NCBI GenBank assembly: GCA_026993075.1
Contig: JALWUQ010000088.1
Coordinates: 3,700 to 67,699, forward strand
Length of the DNA: 64,000 nt
From: Campylobacteraceae bacterium
Lineage (GTDB): Bacteria; Campylobacterota; Campylobacteria; Campylobacterales; JALSKU01
Reading direction: 5' to 3'
Below, in pieces: positions 4,771-60,131 of this stretch. The translations under genes and the position numbers were made by a program. Position 1 is the first letter of the stretch; each line of letters opens with the position of its first letter. The notes under the pieces were generated by a model. The model was not told where the DNA came from. It ran no database searches and saw only the letters and a program-made list of their open reading frames with translations.

Positions 4771-4828
4771 CAATCTTTATTTTGCCAAATTATGAGATAA
4801 AATAGAAACGACCGAGATTTCAGCTAAT

Positions 4829-6046
4829 TTAATTATTAAAAATATCTATCTCTTTAAAACTTGATTTTGTAGGTTTTACTATGGATATATTGTAATTTAC
4901 CTGATTATTTATGATATTTTCATTAAATAATCTTTTTGCATTATTATTAAAATATAGTGTATATATATAATCTATCCCAATTGAAGTGGAATAGTTAATC
5001 CAATCAAACAAGATATTATTACCTAAAAGTTTATTGATTGCAAGTAAGTTGGTATCACTTTTACCAATAGAATTTGCTATATAAAAATTTTTTCTATCAT
5101 CATATTGAGTTAAGCTTAGAAGAAGAGGATTGTAATTGATTTGTGTTGAAAAAAGTGCATAAGGCAAAATCCCGTAAAATCTAAATTGTGATGATAAAAG
5201 ACTTGTTTTTACTAAAGGAGTATTTAAAAAGACAGAACTGTTTGTTAATCTTCTGTTGTATCTTAAAATAGATCTAAAATTACTTTGAGACTGCGGTATA
5301 ACTTTTTGATAAACTATCCTTTTATCGCTGTTTTGGAGATAACTACTTAGTTTATAACCTATGGAGCTTTCATCTGAAAAAATAGCAATTCTGTCATTTG
5401 TCAAAGATAATAATTTGTCAATTTGCTTTTTATAATTGATACCGCCAAAGATAAAATTTGTATTATTTCCGGAAAATTCAATTTTATTTATTGTAGGGAT
5501 ATAAAATATTAAAGAAGTTTTGATTTGTGATAGATTGTTTACACCTTTTATAGTAAAAGGAGCAATTACAAAGCTGTACCCACTTTCTTGTATCTTTTTT
5601 ACAGACTCCTTTATCAGTGGTAGAGTTTCATTTTTACAGTTAAAAAGTTCGAATTTAAAATTAATATTTCTATCTAAAAGATAAGCAATAATTGAATTGG
5701 CTGTACTTATGGCATATCTACCGATAACTTGTTTAGGAATCATTAATGCTATTGATAATTCTTGTGTAGTAACTAATTGTCGAATATTTAAAGACTCTTT
5801 TAGTATTTTATAGCTTGAGGAAAGGTTTGCATCTGTATTATTTTTGTCATAGTAAGCTAAAAAAGAAAATACCTTCCCATTTTGAAGAAAAGTTCTCAAG
5901 CAAACTGTATCACAATTTTTTACACCAAGATTTATAACATGAGTACCCGGCAATGGCAAGGTTGACAAATATAGACTTTTAGCAAAGATTACCTGACTTG
6001 AGATAAAAAATAATAACAATACAATAAATTTCAAAAAAAACTCCAT
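4829..6046 (-). CDS. Hypothetical secreted/periplasmic protein, N/I/S-rich (possibly a type-1 periplasmic-binding-protein-like fold)
   Basis: 405-aa ORF with an N-terminal signal/anchor (FIVLLLFFISSQVIFA). I recognise no catalytic motif. The alternating beta-alpha pattern is only weakly reminiscent of LivK/LpoA-type folds. Confidence 0.5.
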   Translation of the reverse strand: MEFFLKFIVLLLFFISSQVIFAKSLYLSTLPLPGTHVINLGVKNCDTVCLRTFLQNGKVFSFLAYYDKNNTDANLSSSYKILKESLNIRQLVTTQELSIALMIPKQVIGRYAISTANSIIAYLLDRNINFKFELFNCKNETLPLIKESVKKIQESGYSFVIAPFTIKGVNNLSQIKTSLIFYIPTINKIEFSGNNTNFIFGGINYKKQIDKLLSLTNDRIAIFSDESSIGYKLSSYLQNSDKRIVYQKVIPQSQSNFRSILRYNRRLTNSSVFLNTPLVKTSLLSSQFRFYGILPYALFSTQINYNPLLLSLTQYDDRKNFYIANSIGKSDTNLLAINKLLGNNILFDWINYSTSIGIDYIYTLYFNNNAKRLFNENIINNQVNYNISIVKPTKSSFKEIDIFNN

Positions 6047-6087
6047 AAATTATATGAATTGATATTATATCCAATTTTTGTTTGATA

Positions 6088-6168
6088 TAACTGACTTTAT
6101 GCACTTTTTTCTCGAAAACTCCTACTATTCGTAACTTCAAGGGAGTTGTAAGAACTTAAGGTCGGTTA
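6088..6168. repeat. MITE-like intergenic repeat, copy A (terminal inverted repeats TAACTGACTTTA...TAAGGTCGGTTA)
   Basis: Its first 70 nt align by hand, with one 1-nt gap, to 58946-59014 (about 59 identical positions). Its termini match 46559-46588. The right terminus TTA supplies the stop codon of the minus-strand UDG gene. Confidence 0.75.
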
Positions 6169-6834
6169 TAATAAATTTTTTACTTTTTTCATATCTAAAA
6201 AAACGAATTTTTTAGCAGATGGATTTCTTAGTAAATAACTAGGATGAAAAGTAGGTATAATTTTTATATTATTTAATTCGATAATTTCTCCTCTAATCTT
6301 TGAAATAGGAGTTTTGTCGCCAGTTAGATATCTGTATGCAGTTGCACCTAATGTTACTATGATTTTAGGATTTATTATATCTATCTCTTTCAATAGATAT
6401 GGCAGGCACTCATTAGATTCTTCTTGTGTCGGCACTCTATTGTTTGGAGGCCTGCATTTTACAATATTTGATATATAAACTTCCTCTCTTTGTAATTCTA
6501 AAACATTTTCTATTATTTTTACCAGCAAATCTCCAGCTCTGCCGACAAAAGGCCTTCCTGTTTCATCTTCACTGACACCCGGGCCTTCTCCTATAAAAAA
6601 TAAGGAGGAGTTAATATCTCCTTCTCCAAAGACAGTATTTTTTCTTGTTTTTGACAATGTGCAAAGATGACAGTTTAAGACGGTATTTTTCAATTTATTT
6701 ATTGAATTTGGAAGAGAATTAGATATTTGCATATCTGTCTGTTTGATATTTTTTATATCATTAAAATACTCTAATCCCAATGATTGATAAGTATATAATT
6801 CTTTTAGCAATCTTAACTTTTTTAATTCTTTCAT
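6166..6834 (-). CDS. Uracil-DNA glycosylase, family 4
   Basis: CHLC...VFGEGD...FFIGEGPG..ED..G.PFVG.AG.LL and a C-terminal HPS motif are typical of family-4 UDG. Confidence 0.85.
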   Translation of the reverse strand: MKELKKLRLLKELYTYQSLGLEYFNDIKNIKQTDMQISNSLPNSINKLKNTVLNCHLCTLSKTRKNTVFGEGDINSSLFFIGEGPGVSEDETGRPFVGRAGDLLVKIIENVLELQREEVYISNIVKCRPPNNRVPTQEESNECLPYLLKEIDIINPKIIVTLGATAYRYLTGDKTPISKIRGEIIELNNIKIIPTFHPSYLLRNPSAKKFVFLDMKKVKNLL

Positions 6835-6965
6835 TTAGAAATTTCTTTTTAGAGATATTAAGCTTATATAAAATATTAGAATCTAAAGTATGTTTTTAGA
6901 TTTTAAACTCTATTTAAAATAACGATACTGAACCCTCCATCTTTTTAAAGACAGAGGATATATTT

Positions 6966-7358
6966 TTATTCTGTTACTTCTACTACTTTTGGATCACTTT
7001 CCCAGACACCATGCTTTGTACAATAACTTTGAGCAACCAAAGTCATTTTTTTACCTTGAGGCTTGATTTTAAAAGTTACTTCGGCATGACCTTTTTCACC
7101 TTGTCCACCTAAAGTTCCTGCGACAAAATCAGCTCTGGCTAAAAGAGTTTCTTTATTATACAAAGACATATTTGCAATATAATGATCAAAATCATCAGGG
7201 TGAGTGTATTCGTTTCCTACTTTTACAGTTACTTCAAATACATCAGAACTTTTAGCTGTATCAGCACAATGGATAAACGGGGAATGTCTGTCAATATAAT
7301 CTTTTTTTGACTCTCTTTCAACAGTATCTATATCAACATATCTATTTATTTTTGGCAT
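6966..7358 (-). CDS. Superoxide reductase (desulfoferrodoxin ferrous-iron-binding domain family)
   Basis: Candidate iron ligand motifs are present: DRHSPFI (cf. KHVP.I), HPDDFDHYI (cf. HPM...H.I) and SYCTKHGVWES (cf. C.LHGLWE). Confidence 0.8.
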   Translation of the reverse strand: MPKINRYVDIDTVERESKKDYIDRHSPFIHCADTAKSSDVFEVTVKVGNEYTHPDDFDHYIANMSLYNKETLLARADFVAGTLGGQGEKGHAEVTFKIKPQGKKMTLVAQSYCTKHGVWESDPKVVEVTE

Positions 7359-7415
7359 TTTATAACTCCTTTTTTTAATGTGAGTTATTATATCTTTATT
7401 ATTCTTATATTATTA

Positions 7416-7448
7416 ATATAAATAGGATATAAAATATCCTATTTATAT
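7416..7448. terminator. 33-nt perfect palindrome (15-bp arms, 3-nt loop) between the sdh/frd operon end and the SOR gene start
   Basis: ATATAAATAGGATAT-AAA-ATATCCTATTTATAT read directly. It lies 5 nt after the sdhE-like stop on the minus strand. There is no clean U-tract, so it may be a terminator, an RNA stabiliser or an operator. Confidence 0.45.
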
Positions 7449-7452
7449 ATAT

Positions 7453-8331
7453 TTAAAGAAAAGTAACCTCACTTACATTGTGATCCAATCCAAGTGCATC
7501 AGGTGTGATACCCAAAGCTAAACCAATCATTTGTGGCAAGTGAAGTACTGGCATGTTGACATCCCTTCCAATTTCTTTTGATATGTTATGTTGTTGAACA
7601 TCAAGTCTCAAATGACAAAGAGGGCAGGGAGTTACAACAACATCAGCATCATTATCCATAGCATCAAGCATTGCATCACCTGAGAGTTTGTTCGCAGTTT
7701 TTGGGGCTTGAAGCTCAACATGGAAGCCACAGCATTTATTTTTGTGTGCATAGTTTACACTATTGCCTCCCAAAGCAGATATTAATCTCTCCATAGAATT
7801 TGGTACATAAGGATTCTCGCCTCCATTATTATTTTTATGAAGAGAGCTTGGTCTGATATTATGGCATCCATAAAATGGAGCAATATTTAAATTTTTCAAT
7901 GGCTTTGTAACTTTTTCTGCTATGGCATCAACTCCAATATCATCTATAATTGCATATAAGAAGTGCTTAACATCAGAAGTACCTTTATACTCTAGTCCAA
8001 CTTCAGATAATTTTTGATTTACTTTTGATTTCAACGATTCGTCATTATCAAGTTTTTCTTTTGTTAGAGAAGTATTTAGCTGACAGGTATTGCATATTGT
8101 AACCATTGTTAATCCAAGTTTTTCAGCATAACATATATTTCTGGTATTTAGTGTTAGAGATAAAAATTCATCAAAATCTTGCAAATGACCAGCGCCACAA
8201 CAACTTGCTTCTTCCAGGATTATAAGCTCTATATCAAGTGCTCTAGCCACAGCCATAGTTGACTTTAAGAGTTCCGGGGTGCTTTCCTTTGCAGTACATC
8301 CTGTGTATAATGCATATTTTAATTTACTCAT
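7453..8331 (-). CDS. sdhE: Succinate dehydrogenase/fumarate reductase type-E third subunit (CCG-domain, HdrB-like)
   Basis: Two cysteine-rich CCG-type motifs (ASCCGAG..., KCCGFH...PCPLCH), no TM helices, and a position downstream of the flavoprotein and Fe-S subunits. Confidence 0.8.
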   Translation of the reverse strand: MSKLKYALYTGCTAKESTPELLKSTMAVARALDIELIILEEASCCGAGHLQDFDEFLSLTLNTRNICYAEKLGLTMVTICNTCQLNTSLTKEKLDNDESLKSKVNQKLSEVGLEYKGTSDVKHFLYAIIDDIGVDAIAEKVTKPLKNLNIAPFYGCHNIRPSSLHKNNNGGENPYVPNSMERLISALGGNSVNYAHKNKCCGFHVELQAPKTANKLSGDAMLDAMDNDADVVVTPCPLCHLRLDVQQHNISKEIGRDVNMPVLHLPQMIGLALGITPDALGLDHNVSEVTFL

Positions 8332-8340
8332 ATTCTTTCC

Positions 8341-9318
8341 TTAAAAATCAACTGTTGAACTAATTTCAACGAGTTTTTTAATTTCATCCATATTTTTGGA
8401 TTTTGGCATATTCCAAGGCATAACTATCTTGCCTTTTTTCCACATAGTGTAAGCTTCGGGCAAATGTTTTAAAACTCCTATGCTTCCTTCGCTGTATCTT
8501 ACCAATTCTCCTTCATCTAATATTCCATGTTTTTTAATAGAAGATTTAAAGCCAACTGCATGTCTTGTTGCAACATTATTGATTGCTTTGTTATTTTGGA
8601 ATATTTGATTGTGAAGTTTCCCTATTTTGCTTATAGGTGAGAGATCTTTAGGACAAGCCTCTGCACACTCATAACACTTAACGCAATCCCAAACTCCTGC
8701 ACCAGGCTCATTTACAATATCCAGCCTTTCATTTTTTGCATTATCTCTTATGTCTGCATTAAATCTAAAAGCTTTTAGTAGGGCTGCTGGTCCAAGATAC
8801 TCATCGTTTACTTTAACAGAAGGGCAGGCGTAAAAACAATTTCCACATTGAATACAATAATCAGACTCATCTAACAAATCTACCTCTTCTTGCGAAATAA
8901 TATTTTCATGTTTTGGATGATTGTTTATTTCTGCCACTAAAAATGGTTTTACCTTGGAGTATTTTTGCCAAAAGTTCTTTTTGTTAATCACCATATCTTT
9001 AACAGCTCTTTTTTCATCTTGAGGCTCAAGAACTAACTCATTTCCATACATATCAATCAAATTAAAAACATTTTCCGTACAAGAAAGTACAGGTTTTTGA
9101 TTTACTTTTATAGCACAGCTTCCACAAATTCCATGTCTGCAACTCCTTCTATAACTGAAACTGCCATCAAACTCCCACTTAATTCTATTTAAAATATCTA
9201 AAATCACCTCATCTTGTGCAACTTCCATTTCATACTTTAAATAATATGGTAAATGGTCCGTTTCTTGATTAAATCTAAAGACTTTAAATATTACCTTTCT
9301 TTTTGTATGTTCTCTCAT
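8341..9318 (-). CDS. sdhB: Succinate dehydrogenase/fumarate reductase iron-sulfur subunit
   Basis: 2Fe-2S motif (SCRHGICGSCA) and two ferredoxin-type Cys clusters (CIQCGNCFYACP, CVKCYECAEACP). Confidence 0.9.
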   Translation of the reverse strand: MREHTKRKVIFKVFRFNQETDHLPYYLKYEMEVAQDEVILDILNRIKWEFDGSFSYRRSCRHGICGSCAIKVNQKPVLSCTENVFNLIDMYGNELVLEPQDEKRAVKDMVINKKNFWQKYSKVKPFLVAEINNHPKHENIISQEEVDLLDESDYCIQCGNCFYACPSVKVNDEYLGPAALLKAFRFNADIRDNAKNERLDIVNEPGAGVWDCVKCYECAEACPKDLSPISKIGKLHNQIFQNNKAINNVATRHAVGFKSSIKKHGILDEGELVRYSEGSIGVLKHLPEAYTMWKKGKIVMPWNMPKSKNMDEIKKLVEISSTVDF

Positions 9319-9413
9319 CCTAAAATCTCCTTTTTAAAAGGTGTAAAATCCTTGACAATTTGATTTGTATCTCTAATTGTATCAATATTGAAATATGATT
9401 TTTTAATTTTCAT
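9315..9413 (-). CDS. Candidate 32-aa small ORF between sdhA and sdhB (MKIKKSYFNIDTIRDTNQIVKDFTPFKKEILG)
   Basis: Hand translation. A GGAG lies 8 nt upstream of the ATG, which starts 12 nt after the sdhA stop. Its TGA overlaps the sdhB ATG (ATGA). It is below the ORF-track length cutoff. Confidence 0.35.
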   Translation of the reverse strand: MKIKKSYFNIDTIRDTNQIVKDFTPFKKEILG

Positions 9414-9425
9414 TGTTTCCGCTCC

Positions 9426-11147
9426 CTAATAAGTTCGTTCTTGTGGCTCAAAAATACCAAGTTGCACATCTTTGTATTCCATATTTATCTCACCGTTTTC
9501 ATTCATAGTAGCATAAGTATGTTTCAAAAAGTTTTTGTCATCTCTTTTTGGATAATCATCCCTAAAATGAGCACCGCGACTCTCTTTTCTTGCTATTGCA
9601 CCTTCAATTATAAAAAGTGAATAATCAAGCATGTGACCAAGTTCAAGTGCTTCTTGTAAGTCTGTATTATAAATTTTTGATTTATCATCAATTCTAATAT
9701 TTTTAAATCTTTCTCTAAGATTTTTTAATTTTCTTCTTTGTTTTAGCAGTGACTCCTCAGTTCTAAAAACACCAGCGTTTTTAGTCATACTTTCTTGAAG
9801 CTCAGTCCTTAAGACTGGAACTTTTTCATCTCCGCTTGAAGTTAAAATATTATTTATTTCATTGAGCATTCTATCAGCATCTTTCATATCCGGCTTTTTG
9901 TGAATTAAAAAGTCTTTATCATTCAAATCAGATACTATTGTCTGCCCTACATGTCTTCCGAAGAATATTGCTTCCAGCAGTGAGTTTGCGCCAAGTCTAT
10001 TGGCACCATGCACACTTACACAGGCACATTCTCCAGCAGCATAAAGTCCGTGTATTCTATGTTCTTGATTTAGTTTTGCTCTTCCATCATTATCTACTGG
10101 TATTCCTCCCATTGAGTAATGAGCGGTTGCAGCAATCATAATAGGTTCTTGTATCATGTCAAGTCCTAAAAATGTAATTGCTAAATCCCTCAATTCTGGT
10201 AATCTTGAGAGTATTTTATCTTTTCCTAAATGAGTTAAATCCAAATATACAGCATCTTTGTTAGGACCAATTCCTCTTCCTTCTAAAATCTCTTTTGTAA
10301 TAGCTCTGCTAACTAGATCTCTTGGTGCCAATTCCATCTTTTCAGGTGCATATTTTTCCATAAATCTTTCACCTTCGCTGTTAAAAAGTCTTCCACCTTC
10401 TCCTCTTGCAGCTTCACTTATAAGTATACCTGTACCAGCTAAACCTGTTGGATGAAATTGTACAAATTCCATATCTTTAAGAGGTAATCCATGTCTTGCA
10501 TAGATAGATAATCCATCGCCTGTATTGGCATGAGCATTTGAATTGATTTTATAAGCTCTTGCATACCCTCCAGTTGCTAACATTACAGCTTTCGCATTAA
10601 ATATAGCTGGTTCTAAGGTTTTAAGGTTATATGCAACAACACCATAGACATTTTTATCTTCTTGAATTATATCAGCCACATACCATTCATCCCAATATTC
10701 AACTCCATCACGATCTGCTTGTTCAAATATAGTTTGGAGTAAAGTGAGACCAGTCCGGTCTTTTGCGTAACAAGCTCTTGGGAAAGATTGACCTCCAAAA
10801 GGTCTTTGAGCAATATCTCCATTTTTCTCCCTGCTAAATACAACACCCATGCCCTCAACCCATCTTATAGTTTCCGGCGCACCTTCGCACATCAGTTTAA
10901 CAGCATCCTGGTCAGCCAAATAATCACTTCCTTTTATAGTATCAAACATATGCGAATCTATACTGTCTTTATCTTTTAAAGCAGCATTTATGCCGCCTTG
11001 AGCCGCACCCGAATGACTTCTTAGGGGATGAAGTTTACTTATTACTGCAACATGTTTTCCATGACTTTCTAACTCTCTAGCCGCAGCAAGCCCAGCAAGT
11101 CCAGCTCCAACAATAATTGCATCAAAACGGTGAATTGGTATATTCAT
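9426..11147 (-). CDS. sdhA: Succinate dehydrogenase/fumarate reductase flavoprotein subunit
   Basis: FAD-binding [21 protein letters not shown], and HPTG and RGEGG motifs. The start was moved to ATG 11147, preceded by GGAGGAAA. There is no twin-arginine signal. Confidence 0.92.
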
Positions 11148-11327
11148 GGGATATTTCCTCCAATAAATTTTCTTAAAACGAGTTACATTATACAAACACT
11201 TTCTTTAAAAAGTACAAAAAGTAACATTTTTTAATACAAAAATAATGCATTTGTTACATTTATACACAAAATAATCAATACAAAATTGTGTTATAATACT
11301 ATTTGTATATTTATATAAAGGTAAAGT

Positions 11328-12146
11328 TTGAATAAAGAAGATTATTTTATATCACTTTTCAATAATAAATTTCTCGGCGATGATGGTGCTGTAATAAAGA
11401 ATCAGGTTATATCGAAAGATCTTTTTTGCGAAGGAATACATTTTAAAAGAGAGTGGATGAGTTTGAGAGAGATTGCCATAAAAAGTATTCTCGTTAATGT
11501 CTCTGATGCTGTCGTAATGAATGCAAAGCCAAAATATGCGCTTTTGGGCATAATGTTACCGAAAGATTTTTCATTTGCAAATATGAGAGAGCTTAAAAGT
11601 GGATTTGATTTTGCCTGTTCAAACTATAATATAACAATAATAGGAGGAGATACAGTAGCTGGTGATAAACTTGATATATCTATTACTTTAATTTCAAAAA
11701 CAAAAAATCCAATAAGAAGAAAAGGAATGAAAAAGGGTGATTATCTGGCATATACCGGTGATATTGGCAATGTGAGAAAAGATTTAAAAAAATTATTAAA
11801 AGGTTTAAAAGTAAACAAAAAGTCTAAATTTACAGAACCAAAATTAAAAGATAAATTCTTTTATAAAGCTTCAAAGTACATTAGTAGTGCCTTGGATATT
11901 TCAGATGGATTATCCAAAGATCTCTCAAGACTCTCAAGTACAAATAAAGTTGGGTTTAAATTTAAGAAAAATTTTAGCAAAGAAGAATTTTGTAGTGGGG
12001 AAGAATATGAGATTCTTTTTTCATTTGATAAAAGAGATAAGCAAAAAATCTTATCTCTTGGAAAATTGACAAAAACACCTATAAATATCTTTGCCACAGC
12101 AAAAAGAGGAAGCTTTAAAAGCAGATGTAAAGGAAATCATTTTTAA
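11328..12146 (+). CDS. thiL: Thiamine-monophosphate kinase
   Basis: AIR-synthase-like motifs (GDDGAVI, EGIHF, NVSD..VMNAKP, GGDT). TTG start downstream of a TGTTATAAT extended -10. Confidence 0.85.
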   Translation: MNKEDYFISLFNNKFLGDDGAVIKNQVISKDLFCEGIHFKREWMSLREIAIKSILVNVSDAVVMNAKPKYALLGIMLPKDFSFANMRELKSGFDFACSNYNITIIGGDTVAGDKLDISITLISKTKNPIRRKGMKKGDYLAYTGDIGNVRKDLKKLLKGLKVNKKSKFTEPKLKDKFFYKASKYISSALDISDGLSKDLSRLSSTNKVGFKFKKNFSKEEFCSGEEYEILFSFDKRDKQKILSLGKLTKTPINIFATAKRGSFKSRCKGNHF

Positions 12147-12155
12147 GCCAATCCC

Positions 12156-12398
12156 TCAACCGCCTCCAACTTTTGGAAATATGGAAAAAGTATCACCATC
12201 TTTTAATATATAGTCTTTTTTAACATGTCTACCATTTACCATTAAAACACCTATTGGTAAATCATCTTCATCTATTCCTATATCGCTTACTATATCCGCA
12301 GCACTTATATCCTGAGGGTAAATCTTTTGATCTACTTTAAATCTACCCTCTCTGTAATGTGCAAAAAGCTTAACAGTAATGTTAATGCTATTTTTCAT
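12156..12398 (-). CDS. MoaD/ThiS-family ubiquitin-like sulfur carrier protein
   Basis: 80 aa ending ...IFPKVGGG (C-terminal Gly-Gly). The ATG at 12398 overlaps the AOR stop by 11 nt. The longer ORF-track N-terminus lies inside aor and is rejected. Confidence 0.7.
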   Translation of the reverse strand: MKNSINITVKLFAHYREGRFKVDQKIYPQDISAADIVSDIGIDEDDLPIGVLMVNGRHVKKDYILKDGDTFSIFPKVGGG

Positions 12399-14136
12399 CA
12401 AGATAGCCCCATACACTATCAAGTTCTTCATTTGTAAAATCCCAAACAACATTGTGAGGAGGAAGTTGTTCATACTTCATAAATTCAGGAAGTCTATCAT
12501 CGCTATTTGTAAGACCTGCTTTTTTATTAAATTCTCTTTCTATTTTTATTATATTTTCACCTAAACTAGTTACATCTTCAGCTGTTAAATTTATACCAAA
12601 TCTGGCATTTATCATATCTATTAGTGCCGGTAAACATTTAGGATCATCAAGTGCGGGAAAAGCTACAAAGATACACATTCCTGTACTGTCAACTGCTGCT
12701 GAGGCAATTTGCAGATTTCTGGATAATTCCAACTGTCCGTCTTTTTTGAGCGGATCTATGTATCCTCCACTATTTAATATATTTGTAGCGACTGCATAAC
12801 CTGCTGTATGATCTGCTCCCATTGGTGTAGTAGCATAAGTTACACCTTGACCTTTAACAGCTCGTGGTTCATAAGCAGGAATTCCTTGGTTTTTAACAAC
12901 AGGAACCCTTACAAGTCCATAGAGTTTGCCAAGATTACCGGCACCGCTTCCAATAATTCTTCCAAGCGGAGTACCTTTTGCCAATTCATATTTTAGTATT
13001 TCATAAGCTCTCTCACCATCACCGTATTCAATAATCCCAGCATCAACGGCAAGACTTAAAGTTACTCCTGTTTCTATGGCATCAACCCCTATATCATCCA
13101 TCAAAGCATCGATTTTAGCTATCATATCTAAATCTTTGATACCGAGATTTGCTCCAAATGCCCAAATCATTTCATACTCAAACCCGGAAGTTAAGTAATT
13201 TCCATCTTTATCATCATATACTTGAGAGCATTGTATGACACACCCTGCATGACATCCATGAGTGGTTTTCCCGCCCCTTTCTTTTATATTTTCCGCCATA
13301 GTTTCACCAGAAATATTTTCAGCAAATTCAAAATTACCGCTTCTAAAATTTCTAGTTGGCAAAGCTCCAGCTTCATTAATAATATTTACTAGTACATCTG
13401 TGCCAAAAGCAGGAAGACCTTCACCGCTTATAGGGTTGTCTTTTAATGCTTTTGTAAAAATTTTACTTGCTTCTTTAAATTTTTCAGGATCAGCTATGGT
13501 TGCTTCTTTGTACTTTTCGGCATCAACTGTTATACATTTTATCTTTTTAGAACCCATAACAGCACCCATTCCGCCTCTGCCATGACTTCTAAACTTGCCT
13601 TGAGGATCTTTTACTGAAATATTAGAAACCAACATTTTCATTTCGCCGGGACGGCCTATGGTCATAACAGCGACTTTTTTATTATATTTTTCTAGCATAG
13701 CATCTAAAACAGCATAATTATCTTTTCCAACAAGTTCTGGCACTGCTTCAATCTCTACTTTTTCTTTTGTAACATGCAAATGATAAAAGGTCGAGTCATC
13801 TTCAGGAATACCTTCTATGATAAGAGCCTTAACTCCGAGTTTTGCAAATATTCCTGCACTTGTTCCACCGACATTACTTTCTTTTATACCACCTGTTAAC
13901 GGACTTTTGGCTCCAAGTGAGTTTCTACCTGAATTTGCAGCAGTTGTACCTGAGAGAAGTCCTGGTGCAAATACCATTTTATTATTTGGTCCAAGCGGAT
14001 GACATTCAGGATCTACCTCGGCCGCTACGATAGTAGAAGTCAATCCTCTGCCTCCCAATCCCTTCCACTCCTGCGGAACATCTTCTATTTTATAACTTAA
14101 GTCTTTCATGTTGACTCTGTAAATTTTATCTGACAT
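12388..14136 (-). CDS. aor: Aldehyde:ferredoxin oxidoreductase family (tungsto-/molybdopterin enzyme)
   Basis: The N-terminal AOR domain (GLGGRGL.S......V.P...PLGP.N...FA.G.L.GT......R.....KSPLTGG) and the 582-aa length are typical of the AOR family. Confidence 0.9.
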   Translation of the reverse strand: MSDKIYRVNMKDLSYKIEDVPQEWKGLGGRGLTSTIVAAEVDPECHPLGPNNKMVFAPGLLSGTTAANSGRNSLGAKSPLTGGIKESNVGGTSAGIFAKLGVKALIIEGIPEDDSTFYHLHVTKEKVEIEAVPELVGKDNYAVLDAMLEKYNKKVAVMTIGRPGEMKMLVSNISVKDPQGKFRSHGRGGMGAVMGSKKIKCITVDAEKYKEATIADPEKFKEASKIFTKALKDNPISGEGLPAFGTDVLVNIINEAGALPTRNFRSGNFEFAENISGETMAENIKERGGKTTHGCHAGCVIQCSQVYDDKDGNYLTSGFEYEMIWAFGANLGIKDLDMIAKIDALMDDIGVDAIETGVTLSLAVDAGIIEYGDGERAYEILKYELAKGTPLGRIIGSGAGNLGKLYGLVRVPVVKNQGIPAYEPRAVKGQGVTYATTPMGADHTAGYAVATNILNSGGYIDPLKKDGQLELSRNLQIASAAVDSTGMCIFVAFPALDDPKCLPALIDMINARFGINLTAEDVTSLGENIIKIEREFNKKAGLTNSDDRLPEFMKYEQLPPHNVVWDFTNEELDSVWGYLDEK

Positions 14137-14372
14137 GATATCTCCTTATTTATTATTTGCAATTATTTTAGCACTTTTTACTGTGAAATAGCAAGAAAAA
14201 TTATAAAATTATATTATGCTTTTTTTGCATATTAATATTTAACACAATATATACATCTTTGGGTGTAAAAAGTTTATGATATTATGGGTGTCTGTATTGT
14301 GCAGTGGTCTCTTTAAGTATAAAGTCAATATAATTTCAGGTTAGTTATAAAAAAATAAAATTATGGAAAAAG

Positions 14373-15470
14373 ATGATGGATAGATTATATTATACAAATC
14401 ATTCTCCAATAGATGTTCATTTTAGTAAAAACAGTAGAGATTTTATTGTAGAAGAAGTTCCTTTGTATGAATTTAGCGGGGTTGGCGAACATCTTGTCTT
14501 AAAAGTTAGAAAAAAGGATATGACCACTTGGGAGATGGTTCAAAAATTTAGTGAATTTTTAGGATGTAAAGTTAGAGATATCGGGTATGCGGGGTTAAAA
14601 GATAAAGATGGATTGACTTCCCAATTTATTTCAATCTATAAAAAATATGAACAAAAGCTTGAAAATTTAGGTGATATAAAGATAAAAATATTACAAAAAT
14701 ATTACCATAGCAATAAATTAAGAATCGGACATTTAAAAGGTAATAATTTTTATTTAAGATTAAAAAAGGTCAATCCAGTTAATGCTCAAAAACTTGAAGA
14801 AGCATTGAATATAATACAAAAAGAGGGTATGGCAAATTATTTTGGATACCAAAGATTTGGTCGTGATAAAAATAATTATGAAATAGGAAAAGATATACTT
14901 TTTGGGAAAAAAAGAGAAAGAGACAGAAAAAAGAGAAAATTTTTTATCAGTGCATATCAAAGTCATATTTTCAACTTATGGCTAAGCAAAAGAGTTGAAA
15001 TGAGTAAACTTTTTAATTCATTTAATTTAAAAGAACTTGATGATTTGTTTGATTATCCTAAAATTATTTTAAACAATATCATAAAGCAAAAAACTTTTTT
15101 TAAAATATTACCGGGAGATATAGGGCATCATTATCCCTATGGGAAAGCTTTTGAATGTGGTGATTTGAGTGTAGAATCTAAAAGATTTGAAAATAAAGAG
15201 ATTACAATAACAGGTTTTTTACCAGGTTCAAAATCTACAAGTGCAGTTGATTTAGCAGGTATCATAGAAAAAGATTTTATACAAGAGAGCGAAGCTGTGA
15301 TGGATAAAATGCAAGGTTCAAGAAGATTTGCCTGGATATTTCCTGAAATTTTAAATTATAAATATAAAAAAGAAGAAGCTTGGTTTGAGTTTTCTTTTTT
15401 CTTGCCAAAAGGCTCTTATGCCACTGTTTTGCTTGAAGAAATATTGCATAAAAAAATTCAGGATTTTTAA
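14373..15470 (+). CDS. truD: tRNA pseudouridine(13) synthase
   Basis: GYAGLKDKDGLTSQ and NYFGYQRFG motifs, 365 aa. Confidence 0.9.
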   Translation: MMDRLYYTNHSPIDVHFSKNSRDFIVEEVPLYEFSGVGEHLVLKVRKKDMTTWEMVQKFSEFLGCKVRDIGYAGLKDKDGLTSQFISIYKKYEQKLENLGDIKIKILQKYYHSNKLRIGHLKGNNFYLRLKKVNPVNAQKLEEALNIIQKEGMANYFGYQRFGRDKNNYEIGKDILFGKKRERDRKKRKFFISAYQSHIFNLWLSKRVEMSKLFNSFNLKELDDLFDYPKIILNNIIKQKTFFKILPGDIGHHYPYGKAFECGDLSVESKRFENKEITITGFLPGSKSTSAVDLAGIIEKDFIQESEAVMDKMQGSRRFAWIFPEILNYKYKKEEAWFEFSFFLPKGSYATVLLEEILHKKIQDF

Positions 15471-15484
15471 AATATTTATTTTTA

Positions 15485-15791
15485 TGATATAATATCTAAC
15501 TTTGTGATATTGAGGTTATACTGTGTTGATTTTGACAAATGACAATTTTTTAAATGATATGATTATATGTACATATTTTTCTACAATAAATGTAAAAAAT
15601 CCGGTACATTGCAACTGTATCTTTAAAAGAAAATGCAGTATTATTTTAAAAATTACAAAAAATCTTGGAAAACCTCATTGTAATTGTGAAAATTACAGTT
15701 TTCGGCGAACGGGTATCTCTCCTCCAAAACTCCTTGTAGCATAATAAAATAATCAAAAACTTTTTATAAATAATTAAACAAGGATATAACT
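15485..15791 (+). promoter_or_regulatory. metE promoter plus long structured leader (candidate cobalamin-type riboswitch/attenuator)
   Basis: Extended -10 TGATATAAT at 15485-15493. AATCCGGTAC..GCAACTGTA (15598-15619) and TTGGAAAACCTCA (15664-15676) loosely resemble the cobalamin core and B12 box. There are mutually exclusive hairpins, AATTACAA/TTGTAATT (15651-15685) versus TGTAATT/AATTACA+GTTTT (15679-15702). TCCTTGT (15731-15737) can pair with the SD region ACAAGGA (15778-15784). Confidence 0.4.
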
Positions 15792-45190: not shown

Positions 45191-45273
45191 GCTCTAAAAT
45201 ATAGATATAACAATATACATAAAAATTTAAGTAAAAAGTGATTATAATACAAGCAATATTTAAAAGGTTTTAT

Positions 45274-45912
45274 ATGATGAATATAAAGGAAATACCATTT
45301 TTCTCCAAGTTTAATGATATTGAAATAGCCAAACTTGATATTTCATCAAGTATTAACTATTTTGATAAAACAGAAATTATATATTATGAAGGTGAGGAGC
45401 CAAAATACTTATATGTGCTTCTTGAAGGTAGTACCAATATATATAAAACAAATTCCAAGGGAAAGCAGCTTTATATACATACAATAAATGCTATTGATTT
45501 TCTTGGAGAAGTTGCAATTTTTAAAAAAATTCCTTATCCGGCAACTGCAGAATGTGAAAGAAAATGTAAAGTTTTAAAAATTGATTATTTTAATTTGGAT
45601 GATGATTTTTGTAAAAAACTATTTTTTTGTCAGAAATTATTAGAATCTTTATATAAGCGTATACTGATTTTAATGAATGTGATTGATGATGGGTTTTTAA
45701 CATCCAAAGAGAGGGTTATAAAATTTATTTTAGAAAATGTAAATGATTTTTACAATGCCAAATATACAGATATTGCAAAAAAACTAAATATGACGCCTGA
45801 AACTCTTTCAAGAGTATTAAATAAACTTAAAGAGGCTGGCTATATAAGTATTGAGGAAAATCATAAAATTAAAATTATCTCAAAAGAAAATTTGATTAAA
45901 CTAAGTGAGTAA
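45274..45912 (+). CDS. Crp/Fnr family transcriptional regulator (paralogue 1)
   Basis: cNMP-binding-like beta-barrel (LYVLLEGS..IYK....GK....H......FLGE.A) and C-terminal HTH TPETLSRVLNKLK. There is no N-terminal Cys cluster. The start was moved from GTG 45238, which overlaps the -10 element, to ATG 45274. Confidence 0.85.
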   Translation: MMNIKEIPFFSKFNDIEIAKLDISSSINYFDKTEIIYYEGEEPKYLYVLLEGSTNIYKTNSKGKQLYIHTINAIDFLGEVAIFKKIPYPATAECERKCKVLKIDYFNLDDDFCKKLFFCQKLLESLYKRILILMNVIDDGFLTSKERVIKFILENVNDFYNAKYTDIAKKLNMTPETLSRVLNKLKEAGYISIEENHKIKIISKENLIKLSE

Positions 45913-45915
45913 TTT

Positions 45916-46554
45916 ATGTATTTAAAAGATATAGCACTATTTAGTAACTTAAATAAAGAAAATCTTGAGGCGATAGATAAAATATCAACATTAGTTGAAT
46001 TAAAAAGTGGAGATATTTTATTTTATGAAGGAGAAATGCCATACTTTTTACATGTCTTGATAAACGGAGTTATTAAGTTATACAAAACAGACTCAAAAGG
46101 AAGACAAAAATATATACATCAATTTACTCCTATATCTCTTATAGGTGAGTTAGCAAATTTTGAAAATGTAACTTTTCCGGCTACGGCCGAAGCAGTAACA
46201 AAAGTAGAAGTTTTAAAAATAGATTATAAAAGGTTACATGTTAATTTTTTTACAAACCCAAATATATCTTTCAGCATTATAAAATCATTATCGCAAAAAA
46301 TAAAAATTTTATCAAATTTTATTCATCAGGAAATGATATTATCAACCGAAGCTAAAGTGGTAAAGCTTATTGTTGAGCATAGTGAAATATTTGAAAAATT
46401 AAAAAATACAGATATAGCTGCAATAACTAATATTACTCCAGAAACATTATCAAGAATTTTGACAAAGCTTAAAAAATTAAATTATATTAAGTTTAATGAT
46501 AAACATGAGTTAGAAATTTTAGATAAAGAATCTTTAACTAAAATGTTTACTTAA
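45916..46554 (+). CDS. Crp/Fnr family transcriptional regulator (paralogue 2)
   Basis: Same architecture as paralogue 1, with HTH TPETLSRILTKLKK. It starts 3 nt after paralogue 1. Confidence 0.85.
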   Translation: MYLKDIALFSNLNKENLEAIDKISTLVELKSGDILFYEGEMPYFLHVLINGVIKLYKTDSKGRQKYIHQFTPISLIGELANFENVTFPATAEAVTKVEVLKIDYKRLHVNFFTNPNISFSIIKSLSQKIKILSNFIHQEMILSTEAKVVKLIVEHSEIFEKLKNTDIAAITNITPETLSRILTKLKKLNYIKFNDKHELEILDKESLTKMFT

Positions 46555-46558
46555 TAAT

Positions 46559-46588
46559 TAACCTTGCACATATACTTAAGGTCGGTTA
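46559..46588. repeat. MITE-like repeat, minimal copy C (termini only; forms a hairpin)
   Basis: TAACCTTGCAC-atata-CTTAAGGTCGGTTA. The left end matches copies A and B and the right end matches copy A. It lies between convergent genes, and its right TTA is the stop of the minus-strand small ORF. Confidence 0.65.
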
Positions 46589-46774
46589 AAAATATTCTAA
46601 AAACAAACCACCGATTAAAGATAACAATATAGTTAAAATAACTGTAAAAAGATTAAAATAGAAACTACTTAATGTATTATTTTTATCGAAAAATTCAACT
46701 ATTTTTATAGCTGGATAAATTGAAAAGAAAAGCAATACTATCGAAAAAACTAACAATAAAACTATCTCATTCAC
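46586..46774 (-). CDS. Small two-TM membrane protein
   Basis: 62 aa. GTG start preceded by AAAGGAG at an 8-nt spacing. Two hydrophobic helices. Confidence 0.5.
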   Translation of the reverse strand: MNEIVLLLVFSIVLLFFSIYPAIKIVEFFDKNNTLSSFYFNLFTVILTILLSLIGGLFLEYF

Positions 46775-57952: not shown

Positions 57953-58948
57953 ATGAGAAATCAAGTGCTATATGAATTGCAAAAAAATTTTCCACTTGTT
58001 CAAAGACCATTTGAACAAATCGCAAAAAAACTAAATATGGATGAAGATGAAGTGATAAAAATTGTACAAGAAGAGAAAGAAAATAAGACCATAAGACAAA
58101 CATCTGCTATTTTTGATACAAGAAGATTGGGATACAGTTCATCATTGGTGGCTTTTAAAGTTGATAACAGTGAGATTGAAGATACAGTTAAAATATTAAA
58201 TTCTCACCCTGGAATATCACATAATTATGAAAGAAATCATGACTTTAATATCTGGTTTACCCTTGCTGTCTCCCCCGAAAGCTCTTTTGGTTTGGAAGGA
58301 ACTATAAAATTGCTGGCAAGGTTATGTAATGCAGTAGAATATATAACACTACCTACATTAAAACTTTTTAAAATTTCAGTCAAACTTGATACGACAGGTA
58401 AAGCTGCAAAAAAAGAAAAAATTGAAAAGAAAAAATTTATAGAATTAGAGTTAAATGAACTTCATAAAAAAGTTATTAAATATTCACAAGAAGATATAAA
58501 GATAGAAAAAGAGCCTTTTAAGGATATGATTGATAAAATTGGTATAAATTATGAAACTTTTTTTAAAACTTTAGATGAACTTAAAAAATGTGGTGCAATG
58601 AGAAGATTTGCTACAATCTTAAATCATAGGAAAGCAGGTTTTAGTGCAAATGCCATGGTTGTTTGGGATATAGATGAAGAAAAAGCTGAAAAAATGGGTG
58701 AAAAAATGGCAACTTTCAGTGCCGTTAGCCACTGTTATTTAAGACCAAAATATAAAAATTGGCCTTACAATATATTTTCTATGGTACATGGTAAAACAAA
58801 AAAAGAGACAAATTTAATAGTAAAAGATATAGAAAATGAAGTAAAATACAATTCTAATCAATATCTTTATTCTTCAAGAGAATTTAAAAAAGTAAGAGTA
58901 AAATACTATACCGATGATACAATAAAATGGGAAGATAAGTATAAATAA
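57953..58948 (+). CDS. Siroheme decarboxylase, fused two-module NirD/L/G/H (AhbA/B-like, Lrp/AsnC fold)
   Basis: Two tandem modules each start with a winged-helix segment (L..LQ..FPLV.RPF..IA, and HKKVIKYSQEDIKIEKEPF) followed by an HPG.SH.YER-type segment. 331 aa, in the nir context. Confidence 0.8.
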   Translation: MRNQVLYELQKNFPLVQRPFEQIAKKLNMDEDEVIKIVQEEKENKTIRQTSAIFDTRRLGYSSSLVAFKVDNSEIEDTVKILNSHPGISHNYERNHDFNIWFTLAVSPESSFGLEGTIKLLARLCNAVEYITLPTLKLFKISVKLDTTGKAAKKEKIEKKKFIELELNELHKKVIKYSQEDIKIEKEPFKDMIDKIGINYETFFKTLDELKKCGAMRRFATILNHRKAGFSANAMVVWDIDEEKAEKMGEKMATFSAVSHCYLRPKYKNWPYNIFSMVHGKTKKETNLIVKDIENEVKYNSNQYLYSSREFKKVRVKYYTDDTIKWEDKYK

Positions 58949-59068
58949 CTAACCTTACGCACTTTTTTCTCGAAAAGTCCTACTTTTCGTAGCTTTAGGG
59001 GGTTGTAGGGACTTTGAGTTTCTGCCACTATAACGAGCTTTGTTTATTATAGTGAGTAAGGTCAGTTG
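58946..59068. repeat. MITE-like intergenic repeat, copy B (with a 42-nt internal insertion)
   Basis: 58946-59014 aligns to 6088-6157. The right terminus TAAGGTCAGTTG (59057-59068) matches the right ends of copies A and C. The insert 59015-59056 carries its own CACTATAA/TTATAGTG hairpin and TGAG at both ends. The left TAA is the nirDL stop codon. Confidence 0.75.
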
Positions 59069-59097
59069 TAATTTTAAAATTTAAAGGAGATTTTTAT

Positions 59098-59469
59098 ATG
59101 AAGGAATTTTTTGAGTTAGAGATAGGGTATATAGTAATTGCACTATTTTTTCTTGCGGTAACTGCTATCGTTACAACAAGAAGTTTTATGCCAAAAGGAG
59201 CATTTAAAAAAGGTATGATTGCAGTTGGAATCATTGTTGTGGCATTCATTTTATTTCATTATTATTCTACAGTAAGTAGGATGGAAATGATTGCAAAAGA
59301 GTTTAATAGTGGCAAAACGATACTTTGTGAAAATAGAGAAATGTTAAATGGCCCTAATGCAATCATTATTTTAAAAAAAGCTGGTTGGAGCTTAAAAAAC
59401 GGTATATTTACAAATCCTGAGTTTCATAGAGATTTTTATAGTGCAAGGTGTGCAGTAGATTTAAAATGA
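59098..59469 (+). CDS. Two-TM membrane protein with a Cys-containing soluble tail
   Basis: 123 aa, AAGGAG SD, two hydrophobic helices, then a ~60-aa domain with two Cys. Its TGA overlaps the ATG of the downstream Crp/Fnr gene. Confidence 0.55.
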   Translation: MKEFFELEIGYIVIALFFLAVTAIVTTRSFMPKGAFKKGMIAVGIIVVAFILFHYYSTVSRMEMIAKEFNSGKTILCENREMLNGPNAIIILKKAGWSLKNGIFTNPEFHRDFYSARCAVDLK

Positions 59470-60131
59470 TTGATCTAAAAATAAAAAAGAATTTAAAAAA
59501 AATTGAAATTTTTAATTGTTTAAATGAAGATGAATTTGATTTATTGGCATCTATTTCCAAATTAAAAATATATAGTTCACAAAATACTATTTTTTATGAG
59601 AAAGAAAAGCTTGACTTTATATATTTTTTGATAAATGGTGAGGTTAAGTTATATAAAATTGATAGATTTAACAGTGAGGTATTTTTAAATAAATTAGAAA
59701 AAAATTCTTTTATATATACTGTATCAAATATGTGCGGAGACAGTGAATATGGAGCCTTTTATAGTGTGGAGGCATTAAGTGATTGTGAAGTATTACTGAT
59801 AGATGTAAAAAAATTTAAGTCTCTTTTTTTAACAAAATATGAAATTCTAATGAGAATTTTAGAAGAATCATATAAATCTATATTGCAATTACAATATATT
59901 TTAAATAGAGACATAGTATTTGATGCAATGGCAAAAGTTGCATATATGCTCTCAAACAACTTGGATTCATTCAATAAAATGAAAAAGCATGAAATTGCAT
60001 ATTATCTGCATATTCAGCCGGAAACACTCTCTAGAATCTTAAAAAAATTAAGCAGAAATGAGTTTATCAAATCAGAAAACGGTAAAATTATTATCTGTAA
60101 TATTGATAAATTAAAAAAAATATACGAATAG
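59466..60131 (+). CDS. Crp/Fnr family transcriptional regulator (paralogue 3)
   Basis: cNMP-binding-like barrel (IYFLINGEVKLYK) and HTH QPETLSRILKKLSR. No N-terminal Cys cluster. ATG 59466 is preferred over the ORF-track start. Confidence 0.8.
   Translation: MIDLKIKKNLKKIEIFNCLNEDEFDLLASISKLKIYSSQNTIFYEKEKLDFIYFLINGEVKLYKIDRFNSEVFLNKLEKNSFIYTVSNMCGDSEYGAFYSVEALSDCEVLLIDVKKFKSLFLTKYEILMRILEESYKSILQLQYILNRDIVFDAMAKVAYMLSNNLDSFNKMKKHEIAYYLHIQPETLSRILKKLSRNEFIKSENGKIIICNIDKLKKIYE

Follow-up and report, generated by a model that had tools for sequence, protein, structure and literature searches.

A probable family of short non-coding MITEs with conserved hairpins in Campylobacterota

Bacterial MITEs are elements of about 100-120 bp that are non-coding, end in inverted repeats, duplicate their target and lie between genes in multiple copies. 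A well-described case is RUP of Streptococcus pneumoniae, a MITE of 107 bp, and such elements are mobilised in trans by an IS transposase (PMC2229807). Similarly, MITEAba12 of Acinetobacter is a MITE of 113 bp (PMC6382973). Another group, formed by ERIC/IRU of enterobacteria (127 bp) and Correia/NEMIS of Neisseria, consists of small intergenic imperfect palindromes whose transcripts form a long stem-loop that pairs end to end; they often lie close to the ends of genes and have been reported to affect the processing or stability of mRNA (PMC2229807).

Here, we analyse three short repeats, copies A, B and C, in a stretch of 64,000 nucleotides, called the window throughout, that belongs to a 95-kb metagenome scaffold of a Campylobacteraceae bacterium and is AT-rich, with 30% GC. 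In our assessment, at a probability of roughly 90%, the three repeats are copies of one non-coding MITE family of about 117 bp and represent different stages of its decay. The family resembles bacterial MITEs in its general build. It has no sequence relationship to RUP or MITEAba12 and differs from both in the 7-8 bp that are duplicated at TTA-N1-2-TAA, in its three covarying hairpins and in its hosts, Campylobacterota of sulfidic and vent habitats. ERIC/IRU and Correia/NEMIS, which duplicate a TA dinucleotide, have other ends and likewise no sequence similarity to it. A literature search, with most subscription journals outside its reach, yielded no description of MITEs in Campylobacterota and no paper that contains the end or core strings. 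The family is apparently undescribed, a new one of a well-known kind of element.

Anatomy and spread of the family

The preliminary description of this DNA had reported three copies in the same orientation, and all of them are found in their places on the + strand, with boundaries that we set by family homology. Copies A and B are identical at 68 of 80 aligned positions (85%), with one gap of 1 nt, as had been noticed by hand, and one of 43 nt. A repeat search of the window groups the same two as a two-copy family, D6, with 86% identity across 57 nt. At the level of exact words, the 17-mer CACTTTTTTCTCGAAAA is common to A and B, and the 14-mer ACTTAAGGTCGGTT to A and C. The window contains no tRNA genes.

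Copy B (58949-59065, + strand) is full-length. It measures 117 nt, lies between the stop codon of nirDL and the start of a 123-aa ORF, is 95% identical to the family consensus and scores 123.6 bits with the covariance model introduced below. Its left terminal inverted repeat (58949-58962) reads CTAACCTTACGCAC, for which the family consensus has CTGACCTTACGCAC. Three hairpins follow on the + strand. The first, H1 (58971-58989), has the form CGAAAAGT-CCT-ACTTTTCG, with 96-98% of cells paired and compensatory changes at all 8 pairs in the wider family. H2 (59005-59025) reads GTAGGGAC-TTTGA-GTTTCTGC and includes G-U pairs on the + strand, while H3 (59026-59054), the CACTATAA...TTATAGTG hairpin that had been recognised from the start, shows compensatory changes in 9 of 12 pairs. 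The right terminal inverted repeat, GTGAGTAAGGTCAG, occupies positions 59052-59065.

Copy A (6091-6165, + strand) is internally deleted. It has 75 nt, 84% identity to the consensus and a score of 38.5 bits, and its neighbours are the stop codon of UDG on one side and the start of a 405-aa gene on the other; it is antisense to both genes. It contains neither the 3' half of H2 nor any of H3, and H1 has two mismatches. The preliminary description had seen the difference from the other side, as an insert of 42 nt in B. This stretch corresponds to the 3' half of H2 together with H3, and since the extra 42-43 nt of B are found in nearly every family member, it is A that has a deletion and not B an insertion. 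Copy A is an old copy with a 42-nt internal deletion and B is the intact element. Other internally deleted copies of the family, 63-72 nt long, carry different deletions.

Copy C (46558-46585, + strand) is a remnant of 28 nt between two convergent genes, in which the left end TTAACCTTGCAC and the right end ACTTAAGGTCGG are separated by ATAT. Its initial reading as two joined termini holds in that only the two ends are present; the joint is ATAT and the boundaries are those given here. As the deletion junction ACTT/AAGG and the right-end variants are common to C and A, C most likely descends from an A-type copy that was deleted further.

Across the family, the true element ends are CTGACCTTAYGCAC and GTGCRTAAGGTCAG, and the terminal inverted repeats of 14 bp, CTGACCTTACGCAC and GTGCGTAAGGTCAG, are perfect in the consensus; the terminal stem that they form is 77-85% paired in 88 matches. 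The consensus of 117 nt, derived from an alignment of 38 full-length copies, is CTGACCTTACGCACTTTTTTCTCGAAAAGTCCTACTTTTCGTAAGCTTTAGGGGGTTGTAGGGACTTTAGTCCCTGCCACTATAACGAGCTTTGCTCATTATAGTGCGTAAGGTCAG. The claim that the repeat has no coding capacity is borne out, as the only ORFs that cross it are short and inconsistent in frame, and indels among copies break every frame.

The distribution of the family was assessed in several sequence collections. A scan of genomes, one per species, with a 20-base core pattern returned 46 loci. The 11 Campylobacterota MAGs among them account for 44, and a single MAG shows up to about 15 copies; the other two loci, one in a Eubacteriales MAG and one in a Caldithrix MAG, were rejected as chance matches with unrelated flanks. 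Among the plasmids of PLSDB there is one related copy, on pSULKU01 of Sulfuricurvum kujiense (NC_014754.1, 45718-45857; L142 2434-2575). It has the left end of the family and keeps H2 and H3 via paired changes, and a different hairpin replaces H1. The copy sits where a TolC-family gene and an Rrf2 regulator diverge, in the spacer that separates them. Further genes of the plasmid include nap and cytochrome-oxidase/NorQ-like genes, and the presence of the copy in a cultured strain makes this an experimentally tractable carrier.

A further scan of metagenomes with the H2-H3 junction gave 40 loci with a GC content of 0.29-0.50, all of which share the core TCTC-(H1)-TAGCTTTAGGGGRTTG...GGACTTTAGTCCYTGCCACTAWAA. 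The members of higher GC have an additional 5' hairpin and the right end GTGCGTAACATCAG, and at least one of these (L164) has a perfect 7-bp duplication, TAAAAAT. A covariance model built on the proposed structure found 88 matches, which represent 87 distinct copies from 79 sources. In one locus (L179 1233-1471) the H2-H3-H1 module is repeated in tandem 2.6 times with a period of 92 nt and 100% identity, which is a recent local amplification of part of the element. Altogether the count comes to about 90 copies, from 11 MAGs or more, from metagenomes and from one plasmid, so that the search for copies beyond the window, proposed at the outset, gave a positive answer. Since dozens of other genomes carry the element, chance cannot account for the similarity of the copies.

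The same ends also occur on at least two other short families. The second MITE family measures about 255-270 bp (L063 ~809-1077, L064 ~1017-1281, and L018 from 5518 to the contig end) and has its inverted repeat extended to roughly 30 bp and, in L063, a 7-bp duplication, TTATAAA; its ORF of 51-64 aa is short and unstable in frame and has no protein family match. A third type, with shared ends (CTGACCTTAYGCACTATAC...), is found at L033 4743-~4860, where the right end is lost, and as a short copy at L023 2393-2455 with the perfect 7-bp duplication TTATTGA. Several MITE families with identical ends are expected if one transposase serves all of them.

Target duplications, occupancy and the missing transposase

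A first sign of transposition is found in the sequences that flank the copies. To compare them, element ends were defined by homology and the flanks examined afterwards. Of 42 copies with both flanks available, 16 have a perfect direct duplication of 7 bp and five one of 8 bp (21/42). Flanks that match in at least 6 of 7 positions were found for 20 copies, against 1.9 expected; the maximum in 1000 shuffles of the pairings was 7. Many of these duplications are non-palindromic, for example TTATCAT, TTATTAG and TAAGTAT (7 bp) or TGATTTAA (8 bp), and therefore they are not extensions of the inverted repeats.

The flank consensus has TAA directly to the left and TTA directly to the right, each in about 75% of copies, from which we deduce the target TTA-N1-2-TAA, with 7-8 bp duplicated. 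This defines the target-site preference that the preliminary description had proposed to look for, and it also corrects one of its points. The TAA and TTA had been counted as part of the inverted repeat, with ends that read TAAC...GTTA; by family homology and flank consensus these bases come from the target site.

In the window itself, the duplications are all degenerate. The best is that of C, with TTAATAA on the left (46551-46557) and TTAAAAA on the right (46586-46592), which agree in 6 of 7 positions, the pattern expected of a target-site duplication; on the - strand, the TTA at 46586-46588 serves a 62-aa ORF as its stop codon. Copy B is flanked by TAAATAA (58942-58948), whose last three bases are the nirDL stop TAA (58946-58948), and by TTGTAAT (59066-59072). 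Copy A lies between GATATAA (6084-6090) and TTATAAT (6166-6172), the TTA of which (6166-6168) forms the stop codon of UDG on the - strand. The stop codons originally noted at the ends of the three copies are thus all in place.

These duplications bear on a reading as REP or REPIN repeats, short palindromes spread by RAYT, an IS200/IS605-like tyrosine transposase, acting on single-stranded hairpins. The family is intergenic, hairpin-forming and multi-copy and one of its strands folds better, all of which such repeats would explain. However, REPs and REPINs make no target duplications, and here every second copy is flanked by a duplication of 7-8 bp; the ends are inverted repeats of 14 bp starting with CT, whereas REPs and REPINs are without DDE-type terminal inverted repeats; and none of the loci examined has a RAYT gene. 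The REP-like alternative offered in the preliminary description fails on the first of these points, and we consider this origin very improbable.

Comparison of close relatives provides a second line of evidence for mobility. The contig WFMT01000190.1 is 94% identical to window positions 4800-15745. It carries a copy (L044 3054-3171) that corresponds in position to window ~15746, a site without a copy in the window itself, and this is the kind of presence/absence polymorphism expected of a dispersed element. The flanks of this copy read ...GCATAATCA on the left and ATAA... on the right. In the window, positions ~15736-15760 read GCATAATAAAATAATCA, with 8 extra nt that nearly repeat the target ATAATCA; they could be an excision footprint or the result of simple slippage.

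At the site of copy A, the same relative has a full-length copy in the opposite orientation (L020 1293-1410), with flanks that are identical base for base. Both copies have the subfamily variants TTATGCAC and CTTCAA in common, and the target is near-palindromic (TTATAA/TTATAT). The opposite orientation reflects either an in-place inversion between the inverted repeats or two independent insertions. The spacer between UDG and desulfoferrodoxin in the relative contains a further degenerate copy (L020 2107-2223). The corresponding spacer of the window (6865-6945) has about 75 nt of unrelated sequence and therefore does not represent a clean empty site.

A local duplication, or ordinary conserved intergenic sequence without mobility, could account for a mere three copies in 64 kb, two of which, A and B, are without clean duplications. 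Against this stand the roughly 90 copies at unrelated loci of many genomes, with flanking genes that vary from copy to copy, and the differences between close relatives in occupancy and, at the same site, in orientation. We give this explanation practically no weight. Small size, lack of coding capacity, inverted repeats, target duplications and dispersal with variable occupancy are all found together, as in MITEs, and support the non-autonomous mobile element first suggested for this repeat. In such a scheme, a transposase encoded elsewhere would cut and paste the element into an AT-rich TTA-N1-2-TAA target, of which 7 or 8 bp would be duplicated.

The proposed search for a cognate transposase with matching ends came out negative: neither a transposase nor an autonomous element that carries these ends turned up across 85 kb of the source scaffold, in any of the fetched loci, among viral contigs or on pSULKU01. 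The scaffold sequence on either side of the window, about 9 kb upstream and 7.5 kb downstream, is without a transposase and without a further copy. In the viral contigs, a scan with a 17-mer core returned chance matches only, with unrelated flanks, and a scan with a 14-mer end gave 70 single hits without a credible inverted partner. Plasmid pSULKU01 has its one copy and no IS with the family ends. Among all loci, pairs of ends at IS scale were only chance or MITE-to-MITE pairs, and an all-versus-all comparison of 495 locus ORFs revealed no multi-copy protein. One candidate for the start of a transposase, an ORF of at least 45 aa in L018 that follows a left end and stays open to the contig end, was dismissed: it has no Pfam or NCBIfam match, and its matches in the protein database are two short proteins whose contigs show the MITE family of ~255-270 bp and not an IS.

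The ends of the family resemble the outside end of Tn5/IS50, CTGACTCTTATACACAAGT. The best fit is offered by the ISPepr1 subgroup of the IS4 family (De Palmenaer et al. 2008), which has 5'-CT ends with the consensus YT-AA-YTT---A, direct repeats of 7-8 bp and AT-rich targets (PMC2266710). The family end agrees with this consensus at 6 of 8 conserved positions and differs at 2, and it shares the 5'-CT, the 7-8-bp repeats and the AT-rich target; unlike members of the subgroup, the copies of the family contain no transposase gene. Judged by these features of ends and duplications, the transposase may be of the ISPepr1-like subgroup of IS4, a tentative placement with the odds somewhat against it.

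Conserved hairpins and the question of a host function

On the + strand, copies A and B fold significantly better than shuffled sequences (z = -3.9 and -4.4, respectively). The proposed structure, composed of the terminal stem and H1, H2 and H3, is 93% paired in the 38 full-length copies. It is 92% paired, counted by cells, in the 88 matches of the wider family, an alignment that was fitted to the model and so favours the structure, with the main compensations still visible by eye. Double changes that keep the pair are found for 30 of 39 pairs, in 221 cells versus 67 in shuffles (0/500 reach the observed value), and pairing falls to about 40% when the structure is slid by 1-3 columns. The structure was supplied by hand and tested by these pair counts; RNAalifold alone recovered neither the terminal stem nor H3. 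A good illustration is H3 itself, whose stem CACTATAA/TTATAGTG is swapped in other copies for CACTAAAA/TTTTAGTG, CACCATAA/TTATGGTG or CGCTATAA/TTATAGCG.

The two strands are not equivalent. The + strand is the better-folding one in 59-60 of 78 copies, with an advantage of 3-4 kcal/mol that is due to the conserved G-U pairs. As copies share ancestry and are not independent, this asymmetry is suggestive only.

In this context, we weighed whether the three-hairpin module might be a functional RNA that rides on the mobile element and is kept by selection on a + strand transcript, be it as a small RNA, as a stabiliser or processing signal in 3'-UTRs, or as an RNA for the element's own transposition machinery. 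Such a role would fit the strong covariation across genomes whose GC content ranges from 0.29 to 0.50, the replacement of H1 by unrelated sequences that still form a stem, and the G-U pairs conserved on the better-folding strand. It would also fit the copies that abut a single stop codon, 12 of which are sense and 5 antisense, a difference that is not significant. The strand asymmetry, however, is largely inherited from the founder sequence, and templated repair in DNA palindromes can mimic compensation. Moreover, orientation relative to the downstream neighbour is even, 19 copies being co-directional and 19 opposed, promoter-like matches are no more frequent than chance would give, and a terminator pattern is absent.

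A further argument comes from the fate of a resident copy. The ortholog of B in the 94% relative is 78% identical (91 of 116 positions), and the genes beside it are 96% (nirDL) and 95% (downstream gene) identical, with 93% and 88% at third-codon positions. Resident copies therefore decay at the neutral rate or faster, and in this ortholog, which decayed faster than synonymous sites, H2 is broken. Taken together, we regard a functional RNA kept by transcript selection as improbable.

Specific host roles fared no better. The preliminary description had cautiously suggested terminators or mRNA-stabilising hairpins; neither is supported, as orientation is random, the B ortholog has decayed below the 88-93% of synonymous sites, and no intrinsic terminator, that is, a GC-rich hairpin followed by a T-run, is present within A or B on either strand. 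In Rfam, the window has no match at gathering score, and over copy B there are only chance-level hits (E >= 1.3) at a relaxed threshold of E <= 10. A role in 5'-UTRs or as a riboswitch was considered for several metagenome copies that lie just upstream of start codons and was set aside given the 19:19 orientation. The string GTTGTAG / TTTAGTCCCT resembles type II-C CRISPR repeats; no CRISPR family appeared in the Rfam search, and the copies are single and not arrayed. Thus, promoter, terminator, Rfam, orientation and divergence tests gave no sign of host use of the element. For ERIC and Correia, experiments have shown effects at the RNA level; the present results contain no indication of one.

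The conservation of the hairpins at the level of the family is best explained by selection on those copies that are still transposing. The hairpins would then be kept because they are useful to the element itself and not to the host, and they might help the two ends to meet in DNA that is shorter than its persistence length.

Accumulation at gene ends

No copy lies inside a long ORF; all are intergenic. The link with stop codons, first noticed for the three copies of the window, holds family-wide. A stop codon is found between -6 and +8 nt from an element end in 23 of 41 non-redundant copies (56%), in five of them on both sides, whereas 3.9% of intergenic positions per side are that near to the 3' end of a gene. 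The excess is significant in a binomial test against twice the 3.9% rate, with 4-8% expected (p = 2e-15). One example is L024: its duplicated target, TTAAATAA, contains the stop, so that the genes on both sides retain it, and the two genes, which are convergent, end at distance 0. At eight element ends, which belong to seven copies (L017, L021, L025, L028, L031, L039 and L045), an ORF ends at the TGA within CTGACC; there, the element supplies the stop and replaces the original C-terminus.

The position next to stop codons, together with folding into a closed stem, recalls the attC sites of integrons, which are likewise imperfect palindromes and begin immediately behind the stop of the cassette gene. 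The copies are nevertheless dispersed among housekeeping genes and not in cassette arrays, they are flanked by direct target duplications, and they have no RYYYAAC or GTTRRRY ends. No integrase gene is listed in the tables for the source scaffold and the fetched relatives. A role as attC-like recombination sites can be given a negligible chance.

The target found here bears on the position at gene ends. Its motif carries an ochre TAA on both strands, and the duplication keeps a stop codon that lies in it. Insertions exactly on gene ends would thus be harmless and would accumulate there, and the TGA of CTGACC can provide a new stop codon. The window contains 103 TTA-N1-2-TAA motifs in ORFs, 15 elsewhere in intergenic DNA and 3 at stops, so that the motif combined with the loss of gene-disrupting insertions predicts about 17% of copies at stops (3 of 18 non-coding sites, an estimate with only these 18 window sites behind it), compared with the 56% observed. 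The excess calls for a further factor and is most simply explained if selection also purges insertions in promoter and 5' regions. Active targeting of stop codons by the transposition machinery, or the use of a hairpin-encoded RNA by element or host, seems unlikely to us; such an RNA might guide or regulate the transposase, for example, or form a 3'-UTR module that is mobile.

How an insertion at a gene end can change its surroundings is illustrated by copy B, which is present in the 94% relative (L187) and absent in the more distant L189 (JBPLUB010000010.1). In L189 (2500-2530), nirDL and the downstream gene for a small membrane protein overlap in ATGA (AAATGATG), the stop of one lying over the start of the other. 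In the window (58946-59100) and in WFMT01 the two are parted by the 117-nt element and a 32-nt spacer with its own Shine-Dalgarno sequence. Overlapping in L189 and separated by the insertion region in the other two, nirDL and the downstream ORF have thus been uncoupled. The surroundings contain a further set of repeats: three paralogous genes for Crp/Fnr-type regulators (45238-45912, 45916-46554 and 59448-60131), two of them adjacent, make up the direct-repeat families D1 and D2, and copies C and B each lie near one such gene inside the nir/nor/nap denitrification cluster.

In summary, these results reveal an unannotated family of repeats between the genes of Campylobacterota that live at vents and in sulfidic waters. 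Some of the intergenic sequence that seems conserved in their genomes is therefore transposon, and the repeats are points at which some MAG contigs break. Since occupancy and orientation differ between genomes that are 94% identical, the copies are possible strain markers. Stop-codon parking, conserved hairpins and same-site inversion take the family somewhat beyond a routine repeat, and the hairpins and the excess at gene ends bear on the question of how very short transposons are mobilised and targeted. A target with TAA on both strands lets a transposon settle harmlessly on stop codons, even between overlapping convergent genes, and the element can also part genes whose translation is coupled in relatives, of which nirDL and its downstream ORF are an example.
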